A stretch of DNA of 11,972 bases. It comes from Thermoplasmatota archaeon (GTDB lineage Archaea; Thermoplasmatota; Penumbrarchaeia; Penumbrarchaeales; Penumbrarchaeaceae). A program made the position numbers and the translations under genes. Location of the stretch: assembly GCA_029762535.1 (NCBI GenBank), contig JARVGK010000051.1:1-11972 (forward strand), read 5' to 3'. How positions within the stretch are numbered: position 1 is the first letter of the stretch; each line of letters begins with the position of its first letter. This document shows, piece by piece, positions 28 to 11,972 of the stretch. The notes below the pieces were generated by a model that worked only from the letters and a program-made list of their open reading frames with translations, was not told the origin of the DNA and did no database searches.

Positions 28-519
28 ATGATCAAAAAGAACATCGAGAAAGCGATCAACGACCAGATAAACGAGGAGATGTTCTCCTCGTACCTGTACC
101 TGTCCATGGCGGCACATTTCGAGAGCGAGAACCTGCCGGGAATGGCAAAATGGATGAGGGTCCAGTCCCAGGAGGAAACGGCTCACGCCATGAAGTTCTT
201 CGACTATCTGGTATCCAGGGGTGGCAACGTCAACTTAAAGGCCATAGCTCAGCCGGAGAAGCAGTGGAAAAGTCCTCTTGCCGCTTTCGAGGCAGCCTAC
301 AAACACGAGCAGCATATCACCGGATGCATCGAGAAGATGGTGGACCTGGCCCAGAAGGAGAAGGACCACGCCACCTACAACATGCTGCAGTGGTTCATTG
401 ACGAGCAGGTCGAGGAGGAGGAGAACGCCGATGGGATAGTCCAGCGACTCAAGATGATAAAGGACAATCCCGGAATGCTCTTCATGATGGACCATAACCT
501 GGGCCAGAGAAAGGAATGA
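28..519 (+). CDS. ftnA: Non-heme ferritin (prokaryotic Ftn)
   Basis: 163 aa; full ferroxidase-centre set at canonical positions (E17, Y24, E50, H53, E94, Q127, E129/E130); motifs QINEEMFSSYLYLSM and WFIDEQVEEE. Confidence 0.95.
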   Translation: MIKKNIEKAINDQINEEMFSSYLYLSMAAHFESENLPGMAKWMRVQSQEETAHAMKFFDYLVSRGGNVNLKAIAQPEKQWKSPLAAFEAAYKHEQHITGCIEKMVDLAQKEKDHATYNMLQWFIDEQVEEEENADGIVQRLKMIKDNPGMLFMMDHNLGQRKE

Positions 520-563
520 GCCGATATACCCATCGATAGGGAGCATAGAATGGATGTGATCGA

Positions 564-1055
564 TTGGACCTCACCGGATTCTCAATAAAGGACATTCTGG
601 AGACCGCGATAAAGAGCGAGGTGGAGGCAAAGGCCATGTACCTGGCGCTTGCGGATTCCACCAAGGACGCGTTCCTCGCCGACAGGCTCAAGTTCATAGC
701 GGGCGAGGAGATGAAGCACAAGGTGTATCTCGAGGGCCTGTACAAGCTCACTACGGGGGTTGAGGATCCAAAACTCCCCGAGAGATCCATAGTCCCCCTG
801 CCGGAGGTGAGGATCGAGAAGGGCATGGTCATGGCGAGCGAGGTGATATCCCAGGCCATGACCACGGAGATAGCAGCCTCCGACTTCTACCTCGCCATGG
901 CCGAGATGATAGGCGACCAGGAGAACGCCAGAACGCTCAGGTACCTCTCGAACATGGAGATGGGGCATCACAACTTGTTATCCGTAGAGAGGGACCGCCT
1001 TCTGGAGCAGGAGGATTACGAGTTCGAGTGGCCAATGATGCATGCCGGCCCATGA
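564..1055 (+). CDS. Ferritin-like (rubrerythrin-family) diiron protein without a rubredoxin domain
   Basis: Duplicated E...ExxH pattern (AIKSEVEAKAMY, EEMKH, AMTTEIAASDFY, MEMGH); TTG start preceded by SD-like GGATGTGAT (552-560); tail EDYEFEWPMMHAGP. Confidence 0.85.
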   Translation: MDLTGFSIKDILETAIKSEVEAKAMYLALADSTKDAFLADRLKFIAGEEMKHKVYLEGLYKLTTGVEDPKLPERSIVPLPEVRIEKGMVMASEVISQAMTTEIAASDFYLAMAEMIGDQENARTLRYLSNMEMGHHNLLSVERDRLLEQEDYEFEWPMMHAGP

Positions 1056-1103
1056 CCATCATCCTTATGTGCGAGATGGGTAATCACTTCCTGATATGGA
1101 GCG

Positions 1104-1685
1104 ATGTCCATGAACAGCATAAAGGGAACAAGGACCGAGAAGAACCTGCTGGCCTCCTTCGCCGGGGAATCCCAGGCGAGGAACCGATACAACATGTTCG
1201 CCTCCGCCGCCGCAAAGGAGGGGCTGGAGCAGATAGCGGACTTCTTCAATCAGACCGCCGACAACGAGAGGCTGCACGCCAAGGCCTTCTTCAAGTACCT
1301 CGAGGGGGGAGAGGTGGAGATCTGCGCCTCCTATCCTGCGGGAAGGATCGGCAGCACGGCCGAGAACCTCAAGGCCGCCGCCGAGGGGGAGAACATGGAG
1401 CACACCGTCCTGTATCCCGAGGCCGCGAGGATCGCCGAGGAGGAGGGTTTCCCGCAGATAGCATGTCTCTTCAATCTCATCTCTGGAGTGGAGGTAGAGC
1501 ACGAAAAGCGCTACCGAAAGCTTCTGGAGAACCTTGAAAAAGGCAGGGTCTTTTCGAGGGAGGAAGGGACCAGGTGGGTGTGCAGGAAGTGCGGATACGT
1601 TCACGTCGGCAGGGAAGCGCCCAAGGTTTGCCCCCTCTGCGCCCATCCCCAGGCCTACTTCGAGCTCGAATGCGATAATTACTGA
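1104..1685 (+). CDS. rbr: Rubrerythrin
   Basis: TEKNLLASFAGESQARNRY, NERLHA, GENMEH, VEVEHEKRY diiron motifs plus C-terminal WVCRKCGY...CPLCAHP rubredoxin-like site. Start may be ATG 1110, better spaced from GGAG at 1098-1101. Confidence 0.96.
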   Translation: MSMNSIKGTRTEKNLLASFAGESQARNRYNMFASAAAKEGLEQIADFFNQTADNERLHAKAFFKYLEGGEVEICASYPAGRIGSTAENLKAAAEGENMEHTVLYPEAARIAEEEGFPQIACLFNLISGVEVEHEKRYRKLLENLEKGRVFSREEGTRWVCRKCGYVHVGREAPKVCPLCAHPQAYFELECDNY

Positions 1686-1736
1686 AGGCGACCGCCACAT
1701 ACATCTATCGGATGGTCCATAGACCGTACGATCACA

Positions 1737-3749
1737 ATGAGCCCGTACGATATCAGGGACCCGTCCGCGCAGCGGGCCTACATGATGGCCAATGAGGCCA
1801 TCGTCAGGGCATGCCTGGAATCCGATGTCAAGGTGTTCGCATCCTATCCCGGTTCGCCAACCACCGAGATCCTCGACACCTTTGAACGTATATGTAACGA
1901 CATGGACGTGAGAATGGACATATCCGCCAACGAGAAGGTGGCACTCGAGACCGCAGTGGGCGCCGCCATGGTCGGATGCAGGTCCTTCTGCTCGATGAAG
2001 AGCGTTGGCATGAACGTCGCCTCGGACGCACTATATGTCATGGCCTACACCGGAGTGCGATCCGGATGCGTGGTCCTTCTTGCCGATGACCCTCACGCCC
2101 ACTCCTCTCAGTCGGAACAGGACGGCAGATGGTATGGATACAACTCGTACCTGCCCATGCTCGATCCCTCCGATCCCCAGGAGGCCTACGAGATGGTCAA
2201 GTTCGCCTACGCCCTCTCCGAGAGGTACGGAACTATCGTCCTTCTCAGGACAACCACGAGGATCAACCATCAGAGTGCGGTCGTGGGGACCTCGGAGATG
2301 AGATGGACCTCCTTTTCAAAGGTCAACTGGAAGGACAACAGAAGGAACTATTCCGCCGTCGGGGAGCTCGCAAGGAAGGGAAAAATGAGGCTTCTGGAGA
2401 CCATCGGGAGGATCGCCGACGATACGCGGATGACATCGTTCAATCGCATTGAGCATTTCGACGGTTACGCGCTGAAAAAGGGGGGTCCGGGAAGGTCCGA
2501 TGGATACACCTTCGGGATCGCGACATCGGGGATCAGCTATCAGTACGTCCTCGAGGCGCTGATGAGGCTCAAGATAAAGGCGAGGATACTTAAGATCGGC
2601 ATGATCAACCCGATGCCCGTGGCTCTGATCTCAGGATTCCTCGAAGGGATCGATGACCTCATCGTGGTCGAGGAGCTATCCCCGTACCTCGAGACCTTCA
2701 TAGCATCGGCCGCTCAAGGATCCTTCTCAGGCCTGAGGATATACGGGAAGAGGACCGGTCACCTCTCGGAGTTCTCCGAACTCGACGTTCCATTGGTCCA
2801 GAGGGCTATCGCTAACGTGACCGGGGCTGAGATACCCTTCGACCACCTCGAGCATCTAAAGAGCATGGGTTCCATCGCAGACGGGATCCCCATGAGGCCC
2901 CCTGTCTTCTGCGCGGGCTGTCCTCACAGGGGAACCTTCACGGCGCTGAGGATGGCATTGGGGGACAAGGGCAAGGTCTATCTTTCGAACGATATCGGCT
3001 GTTACACGATGCTCGTTCTCCCTCCCTTTTCATGGTCCGACTCCCAGCTTTGTATGGGATCCTCCCTGGGCATAGCCGCAGGGGTTGATCTCGCCGCCGA
3101 GGAGGACGTCGTATCGGTCATAGGGGATTCTACCTTCTTTCACGCGGGACTGCCAGGCCTGGTGAACGCGGTTCACAACGGCCATGACCTCACACTTCTG
3201 ATCCTCGACAACTCCGTGACGGCCATGACAGGGCAGCAGAGCCATCCAGGGACCGAGGACGCCGCCGGAGGCAGAAAGGGGATCAAGATAGACATAGAGG
3301 GGGCCCTAAGAGGTGTGGGCGTTTCGGATATAACCGTTATCGATCCTTTCCAGATAAGAAAGAGCATCGGACCGATGAAGGAAGCCCTCAAGAGAAGCGG
3401 CGTGAGGGCCATAATATCCAGGGGAGAGTGCGCCCTCTATCATTTCAGGAGATACCGCCGCTCCGGAGCAAGGACGGTACCTTTCTTCATCGATCAGGAG
3501 AAGTGCAGGAAGCCCTACAACTGCATCAAGGACTTCATGTGCCCCGCAATTTCCCTCGGTCCCGACAGGATCCCCGTCATATCGCCCCATATCTGCGTAG
3601 GATGCGGGGAATGCGCCCAGCTTTGCGGTTTCGGTTCCATCAGGTCCACCGCCGTCCTCAAGGGCGGAGAGGACAGAGTGTATTACACTCCGGAGGACTA
3701 CGGGAAGCTCAAGGAAGCAACGACCAAGAGTGAGGAGGTGGAAAGATGA
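1737..3749 (+). CDS. iorA: Indolepyruvate:ferredoxin oxidoreductase, alpha subunit
   Basis: YPGSPTTEI, NEKVALE, MKSVGMNVASD, SSQSEQD, RPPVFCAGCPHR, DIGCY, TPP motif GDSTFFH...N, AMTGQQ and a C-terminal ferredoxin domain. Confidence 0.95.
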   Translation: MSPYDIRDPSAQRAYMMANEAIVRACLESDVKVFASYPGSPTTEILDTFERICNDMDVRMDISANEKVALETAVGAAMVGCRSFCSMKSVGMNVASDALYVMAYTGVRSGCVVLLADDPHAHSSQSEQDGRWYGYNSYLPMLDPSDPQEAYEMVKFAYALSERYGTIVLLRTTTRINHQSAVVGTSEMRWTSFSKVNWKDNRRNYSAVGELARKGKMRLLETIGRIADDTRMTSFNRIEHFDGYALKKGGPGRSDGYTFGIATSGISYQYVLEALMRLKIKARILKIGMINPMPVALISGFLEGIDDLIVVEELSPYLETFIASAAQGSFSGLRIYGKRTGHLSEFSELDVPLVQRAIANVTGAEIPFDHLEHLKSMGSIADGIPMRPPVFCAGCPHRGTFTALRMALGDKGKVYLSNDIGCYTMLVLPPFSWSDSQLCMGSSLGIAAGVDLAAEEDVVSVIGDSTFFHAGLPGLVNAVHNGHDLTLLILDNSVTAMTGQQSHPGTEDAAGGRKGIKIDIEGALRGVGVSDITVIDPFQIRKSIGPMKEALKRSGVRAIISRGECALYHFRRYRRSGARTVPFFIDQEKCRKPYNCIKDFMCPAISLGPDRIPVISPHICVGCGECAQLCGFGSIRSTAVLKGGEDRVYYTPEDYGKLKEATTKSEEVER

Positions 3750-4372
3750 AAGGCGCTTTCAACGTCCTGTACTGCGGAGTGGGGGGTCAGGGGGTCGTTC
3801 TCATGGCGAACATCATCGGCAGGGCCTGCGCCTCAGAGGGCATCAAGGTCATATCGGGAGAACTGCACGGGCTCTCCCAGAGGAGCGGTTCCGTTCATGT
3901 GCATCAGAGAATGGGGGACGATGTCCGATCCCCGCTCATCCCCTACGGTGAATGCGATGTCGTGCTCGCGCTAGAGCCGATAGAGGCCTTGAGGTACGCT
4001 TATTTCCTCAAGAGAGGCGGGACAGTTGTGACCAGCACCGTTGTGATACATCCACCGGCTGAGACCAGCATGATCGTCAGAGGTGAGAAGGAGCGGTATA
4101 TGGAATACGAGGACGTCTCTTCGGCACTGGTCTCCTCCGGCATGATCGTCTACGGTATCGATCCGTTGAGCATCGCCATGGAAGCCGGAGAACCCCAGGC
4201 CGAGAACGTTGTCATGGTCGGAGCCCTCTGCGCGCTGGAGGGGTCCCCTGTATCCAAGAAGGCCGTGTTCAGTGCGGTGGCCGACTCTGTACCGGCGAAG
4301 ACAAAAGAGGTGAACCTCCGCGCTTTTGATATGGGTTATCTGGAGCTGTCAAAGCGTTTGCGCAAATTATAA
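3746..4372 (+). CDS. iorB: Indolepyruvate:ferredoxin oxidoreductase, beta subunit
   Basis: GVGGQGVV, ELHGLSQRSGSV, LEPIEALR, NVVMVGAL, NLRAF; ATGA overlap with iorA; SD GGAGGTG at 3734-3740. Confidence 0.94.
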   Translation: MKGAFNVLYCGVGGQGVVLMANIIGRACASEGIKVISGELHGLSQRSGSVHVHQRMGDDVRSPLIPYGECDVVLALEPIEALRYAYFLKRGGTVVTSTVVIHPPAETSMIVRGEKERYMEYEDVSSALVSSGMIVYGIDPLSIAMEAGEPQAENVVMVGALCALEGSPVSKKAVFSAVADSVPAKTKEVNLRAFDMGYLELSKRLRKL

Positions 4373-4374
4373 AT
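4367..4374 (+). promoter_or_regulatory. Putative archaeal TATA box for rubredoxin, overlapping the iorB last codon and stop
   Basis: TTATAAAT preceded by BRE-like CGCAAA, ending about 45 nt upstream of the rubredoxin ATG; SD GGAGGT at 4407-4412 lies between. Confidence 0.55.
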
Positions 4375-4419
4375 CCGTACGCAAGCATCCGAGGACAGTG
4401 AAAAATGGAGGTTGCTCAA

Positions 4420-4581
4420 ATGGCTTCGAAGTGGAGATGCATGGCTTGCGGTTACATCTACGATCCGGCGAACGGGGATCCCGACGCCGGGATCGCTTCC
4501 GGGACCTCTTTCGAGGACCTTCCCGATGATTGGGTATGCCCGATATGCGGCGTGGGCAAGGACATGTTCGAAGAGGTCTGA
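4420..4581 (+). CDS. Rubredoxin (53 aa; not in the supplied ORF track)
   Basis: Manual translation: [53 protein letters not shown]; CxxCGYxYD and [11 protein letters not shown] signatures; SD GGAGGT at 4407-4412. Confidence 0.97.
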
Positions 4582-4659
4582 TCCTCTTATGTGTCCCGGT
4601 CCAGTTCAAAGCATCGCGATGATGCATCCCTATAGAACCAAGTGCAGGTGAGTGTGAAC

Positions 4660-6312
4660 ATGACAAGCGATCCCTTCACTTTCCTCGTCGGCGGAAAGGC
4701 CGGGGAGGGTGTAAAATCCGCCGCCGGGTCGGCGGCGGACCTGTTCTCTGAAATGGGAAGGCACGTCTTCCAGATGGACGATTATCAGAGCCTGATAAGA
4801 GGCGGGCATAATTTCTCGATGGTCAGCTCGGACATCGAGCCGATCTGGAGCCATCATTCGAAGGCGGACCTGATCGTTTGCCTCGACCAGAAAAGCTACG
4901 ACCTCCACAAGGAGCATGTGTCCGACAGGGGACTCGTGGTATTGAACGAGGGGGCGGTCGAAGGGGAAGGCGCCTTCGTCCCGCTCATCAAGGAGGCGAG
5001 GAAATATCCCAAGCCCGAATTGAGATTGGGCCTTGGAGCATTCACTGTCCTTTGCGCCGTCATGGGCATGCCCGAGGACGATCTGAAACGCATACTCGAG
5101 AGGGAATACCCAAAGGACAGGGAGGTCAATCTGGCATACGGCCTGTCCATATATCATGCCACAAATGAGAGCGTGGGCCAGAGGTTCGATCCCAGACCAG
5201 GGACCTTCAAAGGGTCCAGGATCCTAACGGGAAACGAGGCGATAGCCCTTGGCGCGGCCTCGGCCGGGCTCGATGTCTACTACGCCTATCCGATGACCCC
5301 CTCATCATCCATACTGCATTACCTGGCCGCCCATGACAGGGACCTCGGTGTGGAGGTGGTCCACGCCGAATCCGAGATCGCGGTCATCAACATGGCCATC
5401 GGTTCCACCTACGTAGGTGCCAGGGCGATGGTGGGGACAAGCGGTGGAGGATTCGCCCTCATGGACGAGGCCATATCCCTCGCGGGCATGGTGGAATCGC
5501 CCATACTCTCGATCCTTTCATCAAGGCCAGGCCCCTCCACGGGCGTCCCCACGTACACCGCTCAAGCCGATCTGGACTTCGCTCTGGGAAGGGGTTTCGG
5601 CGAGTTCCCGCAGATCGTAGCCTCCCCGGGGTCGGTCGAGGAGGCGTTCTATCTCGCATCGGAGATGCTCGACCTCGTCTGGAGGTTCCAGACCCCTGGG
5701 ATCATACTCACCGAGAAGCATCTGTCGGAGAGCGCCATGAACGTGAAACTGGATGTGGAGAGGGCATCCTATCCCCAGCCGCTCATGCATACATCGGGCG
5801 AATACAAGCGTTATTCCCTGACCGATAACGGCATATCCCCTCTTCTGTTCCCGCCCTCCCCCCAGATGATAAAATGGAACAGCTACGAGCATGACGAGGC
5901 GGGGATCACGACCGAGGATGCAGGGACCATAGAGAAGATGGCGGACAAGAGGCTCGCCAAGGAGAAGGCCCTCATCAGGCAGATGATCGGGATGAGAACG
6001 GTCAATACGTTCGGGGGCGGCCCCGTGATAATGACCTACGGCTCCACGACCATGTCGGTCATGGAGGCCCTGAGGATCTCCGGGATCGAGGCGAAGGTGA
6101 TACAGCCGGTATATCTCAGACCGTTCCCCGTCTGGGAGATGAAGGCATACATGAAAGAGAGTCCCGTGGTCGTGGAACAGAGCTGTTCAGGGATGTTCGC
6201 AAGGCTACTCAGGGAGAAGGCCGGGATAACGGCATCTCATGTCATAAGACGATACGACGGCAGGCCCTTCGATCCGAAAGAGCTGTCAGAACGACTGAAG
6301 GAGATGATCTGA
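4660..6312 (+). CDS. 2-oxoacid:acceptor (ferredoxin) oxidoreductase, alpha subunit (gamma-alpha fusion, KorA/OorA type); substrate unknown
   Basis: GGKAGEGV, YQSLIRGGHNF, GNEAIALGA, YPMTP, AESEIA, TSGGGFALM, RPGPSTGVPT, YDGRPF. ATG 4660 preferred over GTG 4642 because AGGTGA (4646-4651) is a well spaced SD. Confidence 0.92.
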   Translation: MTSDPFTFLVGGKAGEGVKSAAGSAADLFSEMGRHVFQMDDYQSLIRGGHNFSMVSSDIEPIWSHHSKADLIVCLDQKSYDLHKEHVSDRGLVVLNEGAVEGEGAFVPLIKEARKYPKPELRLGLGAFTVLCAVMGMPEDDLKRILEREYPKDREVNLAYGLSIYHATNESVGQRFDPRPGTFKGSRILTGNEAIALGAASAGLDVYYAYPMTPSSSILHYLAAHDRDLGVEVVHAESEIAVINMAIGSTYVGARAMVGTSGGGFALMDEAISLAGMVESPILSILSSRPGPSTGVPTYTAQADLDFALGRGFGEFPQIVASPGSVEEAFYLASEMLDLVWRFQTPGIILTEKHLSESAMNVKLDVERASYPQPLMHTSGEYKRYSLTDNGISPLLFPPSPQMIKWNSYEHDEAGITTEDAGTIEKMADKRLAKEKALIRQMIGMRTVNTFGGGPVIMTYGSTTMSVMEALRISGIEAKVIQPVYLRPFPVWEMKAYMKESPVVVEQSCSGMFARLLREKAGITASHVIRRYDGRPFDPKELSERLKEMI

Positions 6313-7136
6313 TGGACGATCTGACAACCTATGCCTCGAACACCTGGTGCGTAGGCTGCGGCGACTTCGGCATATTCCAGGCTATAAAGGACGCTGTGAA
6401 GAGGCTCGAGGGTCTGGGTATAGGACGGGACCGTCTTATCATGACGGCCGGGATCGGCTGCCACGGAAAGATATTCGATTATCTTGCGCTGTCAGGCTTC
6501 TATTCCCTGCACGGGAGGGCCGTCTCCACCGCGCAGGGCATAAAGATAGCGAACCCCGATCTCTCGGTGATATGCTTCGAGGGCGACGGCTCCGCCTTCG
6601 GCGAGGGCATCGAGCATTTGATATTCGCGGCCAAGCGAAACATCGATGTGACCGTCTTCCTGCACCACAATTCAGTGTACGGCCTGACCACGGGACAGGC
6701 CAGCCCTTTGAGCGAAAAGGGCTTCCGAGGACGCTCCACCCCCAGGGGATCCCAGGATCCCCCGCTCGATCCCGTCACCCTGATGCTGGATTCCGGGGCG
6801 AGCTTCATAGGACGGGGATACACGGCAAAACTGCCCCAGCTTACGGACCTCATGGTCAAGGCCATACTCCACAAGGGTTTCTCCTTCGTGGACATCATAC
6901 AGCCCTGCGTCTCTTTCAACAACACCTACACGAAGTACGCCCCGATCGTCGAGGATCTGGACAGGCCCGCCTCAACCAGGGAGGAGGCGTGGATGATAGC
7001 CCAGAGGAAGGACAAGGTTCCTTTGGGGGTCATTTACGGATCCAAGGAAGCGCCCTGGGAGAGGCAGGTCCCCAAAGGAGGACAGATGTCCAAGGAAGAG
7101 AGGCACAAAAGGATAAGGTCGCTTCTCGGGGCGTGA
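6312..7136 (+). CDS. 2-oxoacid:acceptor oxidoreductase, beta (TPP-binding) subunit
   Basis: WCVGCGDF, GIGCHGK, LHGRA, GDG...N TPP motif, YGLTTGQASP, QPCVSFN; TGATG overlap with the alpha gene. Confidence 0.93.
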   Translation: MDDLTTYASNTWCVGCGDFGIFQAIKDAVKRLEGLGIGRDRLIMTAGIGCHGKIFDYLALSGFYSLHGRAVSTAQGIKIANPDLSVICFEGDGSAFGEGIEHLIFAAKRNIDVTVFLHHNSVYGLTTGQASPLSEKGFRGRSTPRGSQDPPLDPVTLMLDSGASFIGRGYTAKLPQLTDLMVKAILHKGFSFVDIIQPCVSFNNTYTKYAPIVEDLDRPASTREEAWMIAQRKDKVPLGVIYGSKEAPWERQVPKGGQMSKEERHKRIRSLLGA

Positions 7137-7138
7137 AG

Positions 7139-7146
7139 TTTTATCT
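7139..7146 (+). promoter_or_regulatory. Possible TATA-like box for a leaderless GNAT transcript and/or T-rich terminator of the beta gene
   Basis: TTTTATCT ends about 25 nt upstream of ATG 7172; no SD in front of the GNAT. Confidence 0.3.
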
Positions 7147-7171
7147 TTGTGTTCATGGTTGATGTTCTCGC

Positions 7172-7648
7172 ATGATGGTCATCCGGAACGATATAAGGCC
7201 AGGGGACCTTGGATCGCTGGTCCGGCTGCACGGGGTGATCTACCGGGACGAATACGGCTTCGATCATGTGTTCGAATCCTACGTGGGAGAGTACATGTCA
7301 AGAACCTTCCGAGAACTCCGCGAAGGGGAGAGGGTATGGATCGTCGAGGATGGCGGAGAGGTCCTTGGATGCATAGCGATCGTCAGGCACACTGACGACC
7401 AGGCCCAGCTCAGATGGTTCCTCCTTCATCCAAAGGTCCGGGGGAAGGGTATCGGCAGGAGTTTGCTCGATGCGGCCCTGGATTTCGCCAGGGTATCCGG
7501 ATATTCCTCGGTTTTCCTCCTTACCGAAAGCGTGCTGGAGGTGGCGGCATCGCTCTATCAAAAGGCCGGGTTCGAGCTGACATGGGAGAGAAGGGAGAGG
7601 AAATGGGGAAGCGGCCTCATCCGGCAGAGATACGATCTCATGTTATAG
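7172..7648 (+). CDS. GNAT-family N-acetyltransferase
   Basis: Acetyl-CoA motif LHPKVRGKGIGRSL, AQLRWFLL and AASLYQKAGF; N-terminus RPGDLGSLVRLHGVIY resembles the GNAT half of MarR-GNAT fusion proteins. Confidence 0.9.
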   Translation: MMVIRNDIRPGDLGSLVRLHGVIYRDEYGFDHVFESYVGEYMSRTFRELREGERVWIVEDGGEVLGCIAIVRHTDDQAQLRWFLLHPKVRGKGIGRSLLDAALDFARVSGYSSVFLLTESVLEVAASLYQKAGFELTWERRERKWGSGLIRQRYDLML

Positions 7649-7651
7649 TGT

Positions 7652-8515
7652 TCAATTAACTACCTTGAACTCCTTCTTGATGAGCTTCGCTTCCCTATCG
7701 GGTATCACCGACGAGTCCATCGAGAAGATGACGAAGGCGCTCTCCGATGCTGCGATCCTGTCCCCGAGGACCTGCACGAGGTTGAGGACCCTCTCGAACT
7801 CGACGTTCGTGAATATGAACTCGTAGCCCAGGACCATGACCACCAGCTTCGTGTTCTCGACCAGGGCCGACTGGAGCATTATGAGGATCTTCTGTATGTT
7901 CCCGGGCGAGATCGTCGGTATGTTCGATGTGGGTGCGGTAGAAAGCCATATCGTCGGTATGTCCTTGATCCACGGGGTCCCAAGCAGCGTGTCCGGGTGC
8001 TTCCTGGTGAATATGATCCCCTTGTATCCGTTGGATATCAGGGTGCGGAAATGCTCGATGGCGGAGGTTCCCTCCTCCTCCTCGAAGAGATACATCGCCC
8101 TGGGCTTCAGATAATCGGGCATCGGCACGCTCTCCTTGACATCGATCTTCGGATCGCCCTTCGGGAGGGATGATTCCAGAGTGGTCATGAGATCGGTGAC
8201 GGAGAAGGGCTTTCTCATGCTGGCGATGCCGAGCTTGACGGAGTCCCATACCGCCCGGTCGTCGGCGCTTATTATGATTATGTTCGCCAGGGGATCGAAC
8301 TCCCTTATGACCTGGGCAGCCTCGAGCCCTCCCATGCCGGGCATCCTGTGGTCCATGATGACGAGGTCCGGTCTGACATCGAATCCCTTGTACTTGTCAA
8401 CGGCCTCCTCACCGTTCGAGGCAACGCCCAGAATGTTGTATCCTCTCATGCTCAAGAGATCGGAGTACAGCTGCTGGAGCATCACCTCGTCCTCGACAAC
8501 GAAAATGTTCTTCAT
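7652..8515 (-). CDS. Response regulator: receiver (REC) domain fused to a DUF835-like domain
   Basis: REC residues E8/D9, phospho-acceptor D55 (PDLVIMDHRMP), S83, K102-P; C-terminal half has GIIFTRKHP, IWLS, ISPGNI, GYEFI..N.FE, L.DRI, typical of DUF835. Confidence 0.85.
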   Translation of the reverse strand: MKNIFVVEDEVMLQQLYSDLLSMRGYNILGVASNGEEAVDKYKGFDVRPDLVIMDHRMPGMGGLEAAQVIREFDPLANIIIISADDRAVWDSVKLGIASMRKPFSVTDLMTTLESSLPKGDPKIDVKESVPMPDYLKPRAMYLFEEEEGTSAIEHFRTLISNGYKGIIFTRKHPDTLLGTPWIKDIPTIWLSTAPTSNIPTISPGNIQKILIMLQSALVENTKLVVMVLGYEFIFTNVEFERVLNLVQVLGDRIAASESAFVIFSMDSSVIPDREAKLIKKEFKVVN

Positions 8516-8551
8516 GGGACGGCCACCATCCTCATCGAAGCGTTCCCTCGC

Positions 8552-8569
8552 ATATATTAACCCTTACCC
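8552..8569 (-). promoter_or_regulatory. Putative BRE/TATA promoter of the response regulator
   Basis: Minus strand reads GGGTAAGGG-TTAATATAT, ending about 36 nt upstream of ATG 8515; an AT-rich island in GC-rich DNA. Confidence 0.6.
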
Positions 8570-8610
8570 ATCCTTATCCCGACTTGAAATAAGGGTTCGA
8601 CGGGTTGGCA

Positions 8611-11600
8611 CTACTCCTCATGGACCCTTTTACCGGACCTTCTCGTCATTACGATAAGAACGAGTATCACGAGCAGCAGTAAGAGGACTATACCGCAGCC
8701 GCCGCAAACGAAGCATCCCCATCGCGTTTTAGGCCCATCCACCTTTGCTTCCGCGGGGACCTTGGCCGTATAGACATCGGTCTTTGCCTCTCCCCCGGCG
8801 GAGTCGGAGAGATGATAGCTGTACGTCCTGCCCCTCTTGAAGTTCGATCCGGGGACCGTGGCCTCGTATATGCCCGGGGACGTCTCCGTCAGCGGGAACG
8901 ATCCCACTCCATCGATGACGATGTACACATCCAAACCGGGTTCTCCCTGCGCCCATACTTCCCAGCTCCCGTCATTACCGACCGTCACTATGACGCTGTC
9001 AACATTCCAATCGGGTGTCACTGGAGGGCCCGCTGGTTCTGCTGGTGTCCGGAAACTGCCTGAGAGCATGGGGGCCATGTCGATCCCTCCCTGGGAATTG
9101 GAGAAATGATAGTTGTATGTGGTGTTCCATTCGAAACCGGTGCCGGGGACCTCGACCTCGTAGGTGCCATCATCCCCCTCGATCATCTCGAAGGAGCCGA
9201 TCCCGTCGATCACCATGAATACGGTGAGCCCCGTCATTCCGGTAACGGACGCGCTCAGGTTCTTTCCATCGTCCAGAATCACTTCCCTGGTGTATAGGGC
9301 CCATGTAGCGGCCTCGGAGCCGGTCGTGAAGCTCCAGCGGACCTCGCTTAAGTTCCAGAGGACCTCACCGCCGGCCGATGATAGTGTCTGGAGTACCACG
9401 ACCTCGTATTCCGTCATGGGCTCGAACGGGTCATGGTCGATCATCACCCGCTTACCGTCCTCGTGCAGGGCCAGGGAGAGGTTCCCCGGAAGGGGGGTTA
9501 TCACCACGTTCGCACCGAGCTCTGTCTCATCGACCGGTGAGCTGAACTCGATCACAATGGGAGCGTTCAGGGGAACGTCCGCCCCCGTGGGCGAGTAATA
9601 GGTCACGTTGAATGTCCCGACCTCCTCCCATTCACGGTATTCGAGGCCGATGTCCCATATGTACGATGAACCTCCAAGGAGCATTCCTCCGCTGTCGAGG
9701 TCCAGGTATCCGCTTGTCCCGTAGGCGTATGCCAGCGTCTCCGGAGGGGTGGCGGTGATCCTGATGATGCCGTGCGGCACGTCCTGGAAGATATAACCAC
9801 CTGTCTCGTTGGAGATGGTCTCGAACGTCATCTCGGTCCCGTCGAATATCCTCACGATCACGTCCATTATCGGTTCGCCGTCCAGGGGGCCGCCGTTGGC
9901 CGTGACATATCCGGACACGTCCGCCTCAGTCCTCGGGGGTAGGGTTATCGTCATGGTCATATCGTCGATCCCGTTCATGGAGAACACATCTCCCTCGTAC
10001 GCATCGTAGAGCTCGGAACGCTCTATCACAAGACGATAATCTCCGGCGGGTATGTCGAAGAACAGCTTTCCGTCCCCGCCCGATACTGAAGAGGAGATGT
10101 CCTCCTCTCCCTTCATGAGCTTGACCTCGGCACCTTCGACCGGGTTCCCCTGTTCATCCTGGACGACAACGTCCAGGTAAGATTCCGGATCGAGCGTAAG
10201 TATCAGGTCGTTCACGTCGGCATCCAGATCGAGGTCCCATGTGTCGATGACGGTCATGTTCGTGAAGACCAGCCTGATCCTTCCCGGGTATGTCCTCATG
10301 CTGAAGCTCCCATCGGCCTTCACTTCATCGTAATCCAGGTGGGCCCCTCCCCTCTCCGGATCCGTAGCCACGATCATTCCCTTGACCCCGTTCCCCCCCC
10401 CGTCCACGACCCTCCCGCTGACGTTGAACCGCGTGAGGTCGTCCTCGTCCATCACTATGACGAGGTCGTCCATTGACCGGGTGTTCTGATCCATCTCGCG
10501 GAAGACCGGCTTGTAGCCGTCCTTGTAGAAGCCCATGTAGGTATGGTCCACACCCCAGCTCCTGAAATAGCCGTCGCTTACGGATCCCCCGTCCCACATG
10601 CCGTAAAGGTAAACCTGGTCCCTCAACCATTCGAAGGTCAGCGGGTTCAATCTGGGCCTTTTGAGGTCATGAACGGACATGGAATAGATGTTGACCTGTC
10701 CAAGAGGATCCCCCAAGCTGTCGTACGTCTTGCCGGAGATCCTCTCGAGGGGCTTTGCCGGATAGACGGTGATGTTCTCGGCCACTCCGGTGATCGGGAT
10801 ATTGAGCATGGTCTGATCCGGCACTCTCCATACGGACCTGTAGGAGATATCCGGATAGATGTCATCGATATAAATGGAATAATTACCCGGATAGATCTGA
10901 AGGTCCACCCTGCCGTTCTCATCGGAGAGGGCCGAACTGGTGGAAGTGTAGATGTAATACGGATCCTTTGAATACATGGAAAGCCTCATTCCAGGGACGG
11001 GGATCCCCATCGGGTCGACCACGTGGAAGGAGGCGTTCACCTTCTCGGGGTTCACCGCATACCTGTCAAGGACGATCTTCACATCGGTCGTGGTCGCGCC
11101 GATCCTCATTTCGAGATCCTTCCTGCCGAGGTTGGAGTACGCGTTTACCCGGTAATCTCCTGGAACGACGTTCACGGTGGCCTGACCTGTCGCGTTGGTC
11201 CTTGTATAGAAATACTCATATGATCCTCCGGATAGTCCGTTCCCGTCAAGGTAAACATCCGGCAGCGGTATCGAAGTGATCACATCGATGACCGTGAACC
11301 TGACAGGGGTCGTCGCGGCACCCGTCATCATTTCGACAAGGGTGATCTCGAGTTCCATCGGATCGGTGTTCAGGGCCATGATTTCGATCGACTTGTCATG
11401 GTGGCCGTTGGCGTTGGTATCGAGCGTGACCGGGATCCCAACGGGTACGAAGACCCTTACCCGTCCAGTGGCATTGGTGTTCCTATCCGAGCCTATCCTT
11501 GTGGTGCCCTGGTCTTCGTGGACCTCGCAGCCGTAGTAAACATACGCCCATTGCAGCGGTCCGCTGGAGTTCTTGATGAGTATGTCGACAGGGGCCATCT

Positions 11601-11972
11601 GGGGATTCGCCACCGGTACCTCCAAAGTCACATCGCTTGAGTTCATGACCAGGTTCGAGCGGGCAGATATTTGGATATTGTAGGCGGGGTCCGCGTCCAG
11701 ATACGTGTAGATCTCGTATTCGCCCATGCCCAGCCCGTACGTTCTCCAACCGTCCGAAGCGCCCGACCACATGGAATAGGTATAATAACGGCCGTGATCG
11801 AAACCATCCATGTAACCGTAAATCGTTGTATCACCGGATGTATACACATGTCCCGTCGTCGAATTCACGTATCTGAGATCGAGATCGTTCACGTTCTGAG
11901 GCAGAACAGGAAGCAGAAGGATGTCATGGTCCAATTTCCGTTCGATGGGGTCCAACCGCCCGTAAGATCTGT
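8611..11972 (-). CDS. Large membrane-anchored cell-surface protein, 5'-truncated: tandem carboxypeptidase-regulatory-like beta-sandwich domains, an Ig-like (Big_5-type) domain, two 73-aa repeats and a C-terminal TM helix
   Basis: Frame is open from TTG 11955 to the window edge, so the true start lies outside. Recurrent motifs TNATG/SDENG/SNETG...PG.Y; SP...DVPLNAPIVIEFSSPVD...WSFTT at about 9319-9612; about 16 N-x-S/T sequons by manual count; hydrophobic IVLLLLLVILVLIVM then basic TRRSGKR. Confidence 0.85.
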   Translation of the reverse strand, partial: RSYGRLDPIERKLDHDILLLPVLPQNVNDLDLRYVNSTTGHVYTSGDTTIYGYMDGFDHGRYYTYSMWSGASDGWRTYGLGMGEYEIYTYLDADPAYNIQISARSNLVMNSSDVTLEVPVANPQMAPVDILIKNSSGPLQWAYVYYGCEVHEDQGTTRIGSDRNTNATGRVRVFVPVGIPVTLDTNANGHHDKSIEIMALNTDPMELEITLVEMMTGAATTPVRFTVIDVITSIPLPDVYLDGNGLSGGSYEYFYTRTNATGQATVNVVPGDYRVNAYSNLGRKDLEMRIGATTTDVKIVLDRYAVNPEKVNASFHVVDPMGIPVPGMRLSMYSKDPYYIYTSTSSALSDENGRVDLQIYPGNYSIYIDDIYPDISYRSVWRVPDQTMLNIPITGVAENITVYPAKPLERISGKTYDSLGDPLGQVNIYSMSVHDLKRPRLNPLTFEWLRDQVYLYGMWDGGSVSDGYFRSWGVDHTYMGFYKDGYKPVFREMDQNTRSMDDLVIVMDEDDLTRFNVSGRVVDGGGNGVKGMIVATDPERGGAHLDYDEVKADGSFSMRTYPGRIRLVFTNMTVIDTWDLDLDADVNDLILTLDPESYLDVVVQDEQGNPVEGAEVKLMKGEEDISSSVSGGDGKLFFDIPAGDYRLVIERSELYDAYEGDVFSMNGIDDMTMTITLPPRTEADVSGYVTANGGPLDGEPIMDVIVRIFDGTEMTFETISNETGGYIFQDVPHGIIRITATPPETLAYAYGTSGYLDLDSGGMLLGGSSYIWDIGLEYREWEEVGTFNVTYYSPTGADVPLNAPIVIEFSSPVDETELGANVVITPLPGNLSLALHEDGKRVMIDHDPFEPMTEYEVVVLQTLSSAGGEVLWNLSEVRWSFTTGSEAATWALYTREVILDDGKNLSASVTGMTGLTVFMVIDGIGSFEMIEGDDGTYEVEVPGTGFEWNTTYNYHFSNSQGGIDMAPMLSGSFRTPAEPAGPPVTPDWNVDSVIVTVGNDGSWEVWAQGEPGLDVYIVIDGVGSFPLTETSPGIYEATVPGSNFKRGRTYSYHLSDSAGGEAKTDVYTAKVPAEAKVDGPKTRWGCFVCGGCGIVLLLLLVILVLIVMTRRSGKRVHEE
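8791..9303 (-). repeat. Intragenic duplication of a 73-aa domain (9085-9303 and 8791-9009)
   Basis: Ungapped manual alignment gives 29/73 identical residues; core GL.V..VIDG.GSF...E...G.YE..VPG..F....TY.YH.S.S.GG. Confidence 0.9.

Follow-up and report, generated by a model that had tools for sequence, protein, structure and literature searches.

Does the oxidation of 2-oxoacids supply electrons for peroxide removal in an archaeon that encodes its rubredoxin between two 2-oxoacid oxidoreductases (OFORs)? The question is posed by an 11,972-nt stretch of DNA, here called the window, in which genes for a ferritin (ftn), a PF1190-like ferritin-like protein, rubrerythrin (rbr), an indolepyruvate:ferredoxin oxidoreductase (IOR; iorAB), rubredoxin (rd), an alpha-beta OFOR and a GNAT acetyltransferase follow one another on the plus strand (Table 1). 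Its source is an uncultured sediment archaeon. The co-directional cluster with gaps below 80 nt that the initial annotation described is upheld: from ftn to the GNAT gene the gaps are, in gene order, 44, 48, 51, -4, 32, 60, -1 and 35 nt, and if oforA begins at ATG 4660, probably its true start as homologues align from residue 7, the 60-nt gap between rd and oforA grows to 78 nt, the largest of all. The ferritin-like protein has no rubredoxin domain, and its gene comes after ftn in ten family relatives; the rubrerythrin is of the classical type, with a diiron domain followed by a C-terminal rubredoxin-like domain, and the rubredoxin residues C12, C15, C45 and C48 are invariant. The genome is 93% complete and encodes Rbr, two flavodiiron proteins (FDPs), both away from the window cluster, and one rubredoxin gene; ftn is the sole ferritin detected in it (a single tblastn match) and rd the only rubredoxin-domain gene detected (a single PF00301 match).

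Table 1. Features of the window, with the evidence for each
Feature	Position	Strand	Evidence or remark
Spacer before ftn at contig start	1..27	+	Probably continues the terminal 25 nt of contig C48, past the flavin-reductase stop codon
Ferritin (non-haem), ftn	28..519	+	PF00210, 154.6 bits
Ferritin-like diiron protein, PF1190 (PDB 2FZF) type	564..1055	+	PF02915, 52.8 bits; 2FZF, E 4.3e-21
Rubrerythrin, rbr	1104..1685	+	NF045767, 278 bits (cutoff 200); PF02915 and PF21349; PDB 1B71, E 9e-69
IorA paralogue, clade a	1737..3749	+	TIGR03336, 617.2 bits (under the 650.9 cutoff)
First Fe-S motif of IorA	3504..3545	+	C590-x2-P593-x2-C596-x5-C602-P
Second Fe-S motif of IorA	3594..3626	+	C620-x2-C623-x2-C626-x3-C630-G; four of four cysteines kept
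IorB (gamma-like subunit)	3746..4372	+	TIGR03334, 185.6 bits (cutoff 205.8); PF01558; 4-nt overlap with iorA
Rubredoxin, rd	4405..4581	+	NF045768, 99.2 bits (cutoff 90)
OFOR alpha subunit (gamma-alpha fusion), oforA	4642..6312	+	TIGR03710, 477.3 bits (cutoff 482.75); PDB 6N2N, E 5e-60; 5B46
OFOR beta subunit	6312..7136	+	NF008820, 269 bits; TIGR02177, 243.5 bits; TPP site, single cluster
GNAT acetyltransferase	7172..7648	+	PF00583; final gene of the co-directional run

The window holds no Pyr_redox gene and, as the initial annotation stated, no NAD(P)H:rubredoxin reductase (NROR) gene, and since the sole CxxCxxCxxxC motif in a six-frame scan lies inside IorA, it holds no free ferredoxin gene either. 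However, the window is the whole of contig C49 and begins 27 nt 5' of ftn, so that it cannot tell what lies upstream. The end of contig C48 carries ogg-gaf-sfsA and an Hrb-type flavin reductase, a context found immediately 5' of ftn-ftnlike-rbr in 10 genomes of the same family, where the operon is laid out as ogg-gaf-sfsA and then hrb (a flavin reductase fused to rubredoxin), ftn, the ferritin-like gene and rbr. The two contig ends have no sequence overlap; joined, they would leave a spacer of 52 nt, compared with about 56-69 nt separating hrb from ftn in ten relatives (114 nt in one genome). Judged by this synteny in 10-11 relatives, an Hrb-type, NAD(P)H-type flavin reductase very probably lies directly upstream of the window start. 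Such a reductase could account for the electron supply on its own, an arrangement that the initial annotation named as speaking against its proposal, and a 2-oxoacid-powered defence is possible rather than required. The window would then make up the distal portion of an oxidative-stress operon of rubredoxin, rubrerythrin and ferritin genes that is conserved throughout the family.

Two known systems bear a likeness to this operon. The rbr-fprA-hrb and nror-rub oxidative-stress gene cluster of Moorella thermoacetica, as summarized in later papers (Das et al. 2001; Silaghi-Dumitrescu et al. 2003, cited in PMC3317640 and PMC12288474), places Hrb, rubrerythrin and a flavodiiron protein together in a single defence unit, comparable to hrb-ftn-ftnlike-rbr of the family and hrb-fdp-ftn of genome G006. 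Unlike the Moorella cluster in these summaries, the source genome has a flavin reductase without a rubredoxin domain and a separate rd encoded after the embedded IOR paralogue, adds two ferritin-type genes and keeps its FDPs elsewhere. With the NROR-rubredoxin-rubrerythrin/SOR pathway outlined for Pyrococcus furiosus and Clostridium acetobutylicum (Weinberg et al. 2004; Kawasaki et al. 2009, cited in PMC12016516 and PMC3317640) it shares a rubredoxin-dependent rubrerythrin peroxidase, window Rbr and Rd both exceeding their equivalog cutoffs, but a canonical NROR (PF18267, Rubredoxin_C domain), part of the pathway as outlined there, was not found in the source genome or its 23 family relatives (24 family genomes).

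The IOR embedded in the cluster is a paralogue, the canonical-type IOR of the source genome being the housekeeping copy on contig C9, whose IorA, encoded beside por/vor, scores 787 bits with TIGR03336. The initial annotation called for trees against housekeeping paralogues; in the IorA tree, the window IorA and all other copies linked to a defence island fall into one clade (clade a; SH-aLRT 100), apart from the C9 copy. Like the P. furiosus IOR, reportedly described by Mai and Adams in 1994, the window enzyme has two subunits, the alpha subunit binding TPP and carrying a ferredoxin-like domain at its C-terminal end; unlike it, the window copy falls under the IOR equivalog cutoffs and has seven rather than eight cysteines in that domain. 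P593 occupies the expected site of the second cluster cysteine (CxxPxxC), and the prediction from a proline at this position is a [3Fe-4S] cluster or a ligand other than cysteine. This cysteine is missing in 86 of the 99 rows of clade a and in each of the 11 island-linked copies, and is kept in all 15 clade b and all 6 clade c rows; the single clade a subclade that retains it has no island-linked member.

Eleven clade a members, drawn from four subclades, are situated within or next to a rubredoxin/rubrerythrin/ferritin island (perR/hrb-rd-FDP-ftn-ftnlike-rbr-dsrE-iscSU). Apart from the window, the linkage occurs in a single genome of the same family, three of the same class, one from another class and five metagenome contigs (L182, L198, L199, L236 and L256). 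Gene orders are several: rbr-iorA-iorB-rd in G006, ftnlike-rd-fdp-ftn-x-ftnlike-iorA-iorB-rbr-prx in G039, and iorA-iorB-perR-rd-fdp... in G033, G035 and G031. Within the family, the island-linked copies form the basal branches. Most clade a copies lie outside the island: those of ten derived family genomes, of G040 and of G027, and some 70 of the 80 metagenome loci, with many unlinked loci being on short contigs. The synteny proposed for both oxidoreductases is recovered for iorAB, in a minority of clade a, and not for the alpha-beta OFOR.

We tentatively favour, at somewhat less than an even chance, a reading in which the clade a IOR is a long-standing member of the island, accompanying it since before the phylum's classes split, and constitutes a second, 2-oxoacid-driven rubredoxin input beside NAD(P)H. 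In one input, electrons from NAD(P)H would reach rubredoxin by way of the Hrb-type flavin reductase, and in the other, electrons from 2-oxoacids would pass via the IOR paralogue; reduced rubredoxin would then serve rubrerythrin, which would turn H2O2 into water, and the two flavodiiron proteins, while the ferritins would hold iron. The altered IorA cluster, probably [3Fe-4S] and of higher potential, would fit high-potential rubredoxin rather than ferredoxin. Against this, purified P. furiosus IOR reportedly contains a 3Fe cluster while using ferredoxin. The precedent for OFOR-to-rubredoxin transfer invoked by the initial annotation is sound, as efficient reduction of rubredoxin in vitro is documented for PFORs from Moorella, M. 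maripaludis, D. africanus and C. tepidum, and in E. coli the PFOR YdbK has a protective role in oxidative stress (PMC13768988). These systems resemble the present one in that an OFOR reduces rubredoxin or takes part in stress defence, but they comprise in vitro PFOR tests or a flavodoxin route (PMC13768988), whereas the window case concerns a gene-linked IOR paralogue. Rubredoxin reduction by any IOR, a dedicated paralogue, or gene linkage of an OFOR to Rd/Rbr was not described in the literature searched. The original proposal of a 2-oxoacid-driven defence thus survives in part, favoured by the recurrent iorAB linkage, the altered exit motif and the lack of a PF18267 NROR, and weakened by the lack of such linkage for the alpha-beta OFOR elsewhere, by the many unlinked clade a copies and by the probable upstream Hrb.

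It is only a little less likely that rubredoxin receives its electrons in vivo solely from NAD(P)H, by way of the Hrb-type flavin reductase, and that the IOR is either an oxygen-hardened or stress-time isoenzyme or an oxygen-labile client guarded by Rbr, Rd and ferritin, with released iron being caught. A 3Fe cluster, which is also carried by oxygen-tolerant 7Fe ferredoxins, would suit a hardened isoenzyme. A sole NAD(P)H route is in keeping with the flavin reductase at the C48 end in its family-wide context and with Moorella Hrb acting as an NAD(P)H-dependent dehydrogenase that is partnered by an FDP (PMC12288474). Moreover, Hrb coexists with iorAB in the L256 island and a true NROR in that of L236, with G031 and G035 encoding NROR elsewhere in the genome; the oxidoreductase therefore does not replace the NAD(P)H route. 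The source genome's flavin reductase, however, lacks a rubredoxin domain, and its reduction of free rubredoxin is only putative. As for a guarded client, RBR1 with VOR, RBR2 with POR and RBR3 with OGOR co-purify in Thermococcus kodakarensis, interpreted as protection (PMC12016516), which likewise ties rubrerythrins to the 2-oxoacid oxidoreductases of peptide fermentation. That tie is physical, without gene linkage or rubredoxin, and IOR is not among the RBR partners reported (PMC12016516), whereas in the source genome the tie lies in gene linkage and concerns one IOR paralogue specifically. Protection alone leaves unexplained why only this paralogue is linked, and not the C9 IOR or POR/VOR, and does not account for the altered exit cluster.

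We consider it unlikely that there is no functional tie at all, the clade a iorAB having adjoined the island in an ancestor and the adjacency having been kept in some lineages and lost in most. The island is flanked by sfsA both in G039 and in the family, so that these loci are orthologous by descent, and the linkage may in part just reflect descent from a single ancestral locus; its loss in the ten derived family genomes, its absence from most metagenome loci and the failure to find an operator common to the islands before iorA fit such a history. Chance retention is harder to reconcile with a linkage that survives class-level divergence under at least five gene orders, with the position of iorAB between island genes (51 nt after rbr and 32 nt before rd in the window; fully nested in L198 and G039), and with the restriction of linkage to subclades that share the Cys loss.

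The full model of the initial annotation, in which IorAB and the alpha-beta OFOR are both conserved, dedicated rubredoxin donors that replace a missing NAD(P)H:rubredoxin reductase, now appears very improbable. Both pairs do flank rd across short gaps, no PF18267 NROR is found in the family, and the alpha-beta OFOR, of the two-subunit OGOR/StOFOR type, lacks a built-in ferredoxin domain and depends on an external acceptor. Yet it is near iorAB, rbr or ftn in none of 80 loci from other phyla and none of three same-family orthologues, with rd about 6.7 kb away in one of these loci; the genome has no other 2-oxoglutarate-type OFOR, so that it is probably housekeeping; a TATA-like element (4630-4636) ahead of ATG 4660 may serve it as a separate promoter; and an Hrb-type reductase is probably upstream. 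By its gene neighbourhoods, the alpha-beta OFOR is a lineage-specific neighbour and no conserved part of the defence module. That the IOR paralogue feeds low-potential electrons to Fe-S cluster assembly or repair instead of peroxide removal, a role for an IOR of which we know no precedent, deserves hardly any credence. In its favour, dsrE, tusA-like, iscS and iscU genes adjoin iorAB in the islands of class relatives, L198, L199 and L236; against it, no isc genes were found in the clusters of the window, G006 and G039, where rd, rbr and ftn are present.

With regard to regulation, the islands of relatives hold perR, rd or hrb, FDP, ftn, ferritin-like, rbr, tusA, dsrE, iscS, iscU and SOR genes, and a TGTAATNATTACA palindrome lies 5' of perR; in islands with perR, the Per-box-like palindrome stands before perR or hrb, not before iorA, which speaks against the two-input reading. 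Neither perR nor a Per box was found near the source genome's cluster, which, compared with the PerR-led archaeal islands, is split from the FDPs and carries iorAB and an extra OFOR.

The data show an ordinary Hrb-type rubredoxin/rubrerythrin/ferritin defence operon (Hrb being a flavin reductase-rubredoxin fusion) with an unrelated 2-oxoacid oxidoreductase (OFOR) next door and, embedded in the operon, an anciently associated and sequence-modified paralogue of the indolepyruvate-type oxidoreductase (IOR, encoded by iorAB), whose iorB is followed after 32 nt by the only rubredoxin-domain gene found in the genome. The window comprises the complete contig C49 (11,972 bp) of an archaeal MAG of 2.96 Mb and 93% completeness; ribosomal protein S19e marks the genome as archaeal, and a methanogen origin was ruled out, as mcrA is absent. 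Its plus-strand run of nine genes has successive gaps of 44, 48, 51, -4, 32, 60, -1 and 35 nt. The rubrerythrin (Rbr) combines a diiron four-helix bundle (PF02915, residues 13-141) with a C-terminal rubredoxin-like domain (PF21349, 158-187), scores above the NF045767 equivalog cutoff (278 bits vs 200) and matches PDB 1B71 (E 9e-69), while the rubredoxin (Rd) exceeds the NF045768 cutoff (99.2 bits vs 90) and carries two CxxC pairs whose cysteines, C12, C15, C45 and C48, are invariant in 13 sequences. As the initial annotation had described, the cluster is co-directional and comes without a reductase or free ferredoxin gene: gene calls and a motif search found no pyridine-nucleotide oxidoreductase gene and no free ferredoxin gene in the window, and the sole CxxCxxCxxxC motif lies inside IorA. 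Sigma-70 and terminator scans stayed at chance level. On the minus strand, the response regulator and the surface protein converge on the operon end, with no link to the island seen.

Features of the window (contig C49), of contigs of the same genome (C48) and of loci of relatives (L numbers)
Sequence	Feature	Position	Strand
C49	ferritin	28-519	+
C49	PF1190/2FZF-like ferritin-like diiron protein	564-1055	+
C49	classical rubrerythrin	1104-1685	+
C49	IorA	1737-3749	+
C49	IorB	3746-4372	+
C49	rubredoxin	4405-4581	+
C49	two-subunit OFOR	4642-6312 and 6312-7136	+
C49	GNAT	7172-7648	+
C49	response regulator fused to DUF835	7652-8515	-
C49	surface protein, 1114 aa, CarboxypepD_reg and Big domains	8611-11955	-
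C48	ogg and GAF-domain gene	10202-11273	
C48	Flavin_Reduct protein, 187 aa	12000-12563	
L113	dihydrolipoyl-dehydrogenase-like flavoprotein	6048-7433	
L158	dihydrolipoyl-dehydrogenase-like flavoprotein	1349-2767	
L144	different context of the free rd	7077-8929	
L182	ftn-iorAB		
L198	perR-rd-dsrE-...-fdp-...-iorAB-dsrE-iscS-ftnlike-iscU-...-Dfx-rbr		single strand
L198	rubrerythrin-type rubredoxin-like domain fused to cupin	14215-14679	
L198	PF02943 fused to desulfoferrodoxin	14993-15745	
L236	NROR, rbr, iorAB, then rd-fdp-dsrE-iscS		
L256	iorAB-hrb-fdp		
L112	TGTAATNATTACA	10045	
L147	TGTAATNATTACA	9529	
L156	TGTAATNATTACA	7529	
L157	TGTAATNATTACA	7185	
L160	TGTAATNATTACA	4711	
L198	TGTAATNATTACA	4604	
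L256	TGTAATNATTACA	3818	

The embedded iorAB has the IOR architecture, with PF01855 and PF02775 (TPP domains) and a C-terminal ferredoxin-like domain in IorA and PF01558 in IorB, and the GDS...N motif and the cluster cysteines are invariant. Both subunits fall below their family cutoffs (IorA, 617.2 bits vs 650.9 for TIGR03336; IorB, 185.6 vs 205.8 for TIGR03334), the second IorA of the genome, on contig C9, reaching 787 bits against the same TIGR03336 cutoff; no solved IOR structure is in the PDB. A tree of 40 IorA sequences of relatives resolved three clades, a, b and c, with the C9 copy in clade b and the window copy in clade a, which has a long stem and an SH-aLRT value of 100.

Of the two oxidoreductases that the initial annotation had joined in one module, only clade a iorAB recurs inside or beside the island of rubredoxin, rubrerythrin and ferritin genes; the alpha-beta OFOR does not. 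The order is rbr-iorA-iorB-rd in G006, a genome of the same family, iorA-iorB-perR-rd-fdp-... in three genomes of the same class (G033, G035 and G031), and ftnlike-rd-fdp-ftn-x-ftnlike-iorA-iorB-rbr-prx-nitroreductase in G039, from another class. An alignment of clade a, used to scan metagenomes, brought up 80 loci, every one of which falls in clade a; five of them (L182, L198, L199, L236 and L256) show clear island linkage. Four of six subclades contain linked members, which hold a basal position within the family, a pattern that fits an ancestral linkage followed by several losses. Such linkage is by no means general, being absent from ten derived family genomes, from the relatives G040 and G027 and from about 70 metagenome loci, many of them short. 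None of 20 Rd-anchored loci showed a clade b or c copy at a distance of up to 8 kb from rd. Complex prediction for IorA, IorB and Rd (alignments A1-A3) gave a score of 0.08 (mark 0.32) and was counted neither way. The ten derived family genomes (L142-L152) have a free rd alone in a different context; in L144, the only one annotated, its neighbours are a phosphopantothenate synthetase gene on one side and an AP_endonuc_2/xylose-isomerase-like gene on the other, and the sizes of neighbouring ORFs in the other loci agree with this.

Clade a IorA is further set apart by its ferredoxin domain. In clades b and c this domain carries both motifs complete (CxxCxxCx5CP and CxxCxxCxxxCP), with eight cysteines, whereas the first motif of the window IorA reads C590-R-K-P593-Y-N-C596-x5-C602-P, which leaves seven cysteines, with Pro593 at the position of the second. 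Across the sampled IorA clades, this cysteine is kept in 15/15 clade b and 6/6 clade c sequences and is missing from 86 of 99 in clade a, all 11 island-linked ones included; the 13 clade a sequences that keep it form one basal subclade with no linked member. Loss of such a cysteine usually yields a [3Fe-4S] cluster, which generally has a higher potential and is more oxygen-stable, and the first three cysteines of motif 1 presumably bind the distal, partner-facing cluster, by analogy with the PFOR of D. africanus. Being a single evolutionary event, the loss carries no statistical weight; it nevertheless speaks for a new partner of clade a IorA or for its adaptation to oxygen. A tail of about 35 residues follows the ferredoxin domain (window 3650-3746, IorA residues ~636-670), with the motif GGE(D/N)(R/K)xYYT... 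and no cysteine; it is present in clade a of the family and in G039, while the class-level subclade and clades b and c lack it.

Besides the only rubredoxin, the window accounts for the genome's three rubrerythrin-family genes, its single ferritin and two of its four OFOR alpha genes; the remaining two OFORs lie together on C9, as a por/vor gamma-delta-alpha-beta set followed by the second iorAB. Two flavodiiron proteins (FDPs) are encoded outside the window, on contigs C4 and C20, with no reductase adjoining, and the cluster thus lacks an FDP, unlike the rbr-fprA-hrb cluster of Moorella. No canonical NAD(P)H:rubredoxin oxidoreductase (NROR) was found among the Pyr_redox_2 genes of the genome, which are CoADR/NOX-like, Dld-like, TrxR and GltD-like, and the NROR-specific domain Rubredoxin_C (PF18267) was found in none of the 24 family genomes, whether or not iorAB is linked, though some class relatives have it. 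Rubredoxin itself occurs in all 24, most of which have an Hrb-type fusion instead of NROR. That IorAB linkage and NROR might be complementary was rejected, since G031 and G035 have both. In two class relatives (L113 and L158) a dihydrolipoyl-dehydrogenase-like flavoprotein, with a homologue on contig C43 of the present genome, adjoins the island, and may serve as a further reductase of rubredoxin or of disulfides.

The absence of a reductase from the window is better understood from the likely upstream sequence. In ten family genomes of four genera, the genes ogg, gaf and sfsA (the last on the opposite strand) are followed by hrb-ftn-ftnlike, with rbr next in the seven loci whose contigs extend far enough, and hrb in these relatives encodes a Flavin_Reduct and Rubredoxin fusion; in G006, hrb-fdp-ftn lies at the end of a contig. 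Contig C48 of the present genome ends in ogg, gaf, sfsA and a Flavin_Reduct protein that has 61% identity to the Hrb of G006, has no Rd domain and stops 25 nt from the contig end, just where the rubredoxin domain of the relatives starts. Its rubredoxin domain either was lost, rubredoxin now being a separate gene, in which case the enzyme would need the free rubredoxin of the window, or lies inside the assembly gap. Joined to the window, C48 would leave a spacer of 52 nt (25 + 27), compared with roughly 56-69 nt between hrb and ftn in relatives and 114 nt in one. No overlap in sequence exists between the two ends, so that synteny is the basis on which we consider it very probable that they adjoin. 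Given that Moorella Hrb is an NAD(P)H-dependent dehydrogenase with a flavodiiron protein as partner (PMC12288474), an upstream reductase, which the initial annotation had said would refute its model, is probably present in the form of this Hrb-type enzyme. In every family genome checked (C48 and L265-L276), the defence operon is preceded by ogg (8-oxoguanine DNA glycosylase) and the GAF-domain gene, and oxidative DNA repair is thus kept beside peroxide defence.

The second oxidoreductase has a different history. Its alpha subunit is a gamma-alpha fusion (PF01558, residues 20-162; PF01855, 204-434) and its beta subunit carries PF02775, and a delta/ferredoxin domain or CxxCxxCxxxC motif is absent from the pair. 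The alpha subunit scores just under the TIGR03710 cutoff (477.3 vs 482.75 bits) and the beta subunit reaches 243.5 vs a cutoff of 261.9; among solved structures, Magnetococcus OGOR (6N2N, E 5e-60) and Sulfolobus OFOR (5B46) come nearest, and the closest homologues (53-64% identity) come from Asgard archaea, Zixibacteria, Eisenbacteria and others. None of 80 homologue loci has iorAB, rbr or ftn nearby, one has rd about 6.7 kb away, and the same-family orthologues in G008, G013 and G020 (59-61%) stand alone too, which speaks against the earlier assignment of this enzyme to a conserved module. Since it is the only 2-oxoglutarate-type candidate of the genome, the simplest view is that of a housekeeping enzyme placed here in this lineage. 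Its alpha homologues align only from residue 7, so that ATG 4660 is the likely start, and a TATAGAA element at 4630-4636, about 25 nt upstream, could be the OFOR's own promoter, with a possibly leaderless transcript.

Peptide-fermenting strict anaerobes of sediments must withstand oxygen pulses and, to our knowledge, the power source of rubredoxin-based defences is known for only a few NAD(P)H-linked systems. The reading that we place first, albeit tentatively, is that the IOR paralogue may provide a second, 2-oxoacid-driven input to rubredoxin; it is favoured by a linkage specific to this paralogue, by the altered exit cluster, by the lack of NROR in the family and by the transfer of electrons from PFOR to rubredoxin shown in vitro (PMC13768988). 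The paralogue does not replace the NAD(P)H route, as Hrb or NROR coexists with it in several islands, and the original idea that two oxidoreductases stand in for a missing reductase is not upheld, as it reflects in part the contig break and in part a neighbour limited to this lineage. Second in rank, and possible, is that clade a IorAB is a guarded or oxygen-adapted isoenzyme with no direct electron flow to rubredoxin, for which the RBR-OFOR complexes of T. kodakarensis offer a precedent (PMC12016516) and with which oxygen adaptation through the cysteine loss would agree. An inherited adjacency of iorAB and island without functional tie ranks third and appears unlikely. To return to a 2-oxoacid-driven input, its most specific version, which we regard as rather doubtful, is that the seven-cysteine clade a IorAB is a dedicated 2-oxoacid:rubredoxin oxidoreductase, the outer cluster of which would be a higher-potential [3Fe-4S] cluster tuned to rubredoxin. 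If true, 2-oxoacids from amino acids could directly power the reduction of O2 and H2O2 by rubrerythrin and FDP, independently of NAD(P)H, in peptide-fermenting archaea.

The island, Hrb, rubrerythrin, rubredoxin and ferritins are of known kinds, and other forms of OFOR-to-rubredoxin transfer and of OFOR-RBR association have been described before. The literature searched yielded no report of a linkage of IOR to rubredoxin or rubrerythrin, nor of a 3Fe cluster in IOR, and we did not find described an IOR paralogue clade with a seven-cysteine ferredoxin domain that is recurrently embedded in a defence island. Such a conserved paralogue with an altered exit cluster is a concrete candidate for a second, fermentation-linked electron supply or for an oxygen-adapted isoenzyme.

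The core island of class and phylum relatives runs perR-rd-FDP-ftn-ftnlike-(Dfx)-rbr-(tusA)-dsrE-iscS-iscU, and some copies add hemerythrin or peroxiredoxin. The palindrome TGTAATNATTACA, at no more than one mismatch, has a single copy per locus in seven loci (277 kb scanned); it always stands ~25-50 nt ahead of perR or hrb, never precedes iorA, and is likely a PerR/Fur-type autoregulatory operator in these archaea. The window has four matches at 2-3 mismatches and none at one or fewer (12 of 200 shuffles reach at least four), the whole genome has three at one mismatch or fewer, none tied to defence genes, and neither the window nor the C48 end was found to contain perR; seven loci of relatives have both perR and the palindrome. 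The metagenome locus L198 encodes two fusions, a rubrerythrin-type rubredoxin-like domain with a cupin, and a ferredoxin-thioredoxin-reductase catalytic chain (PF02943) with desulfoferrodoxin, the latter of which hints at ferredoxin-fed superoxide reduction.
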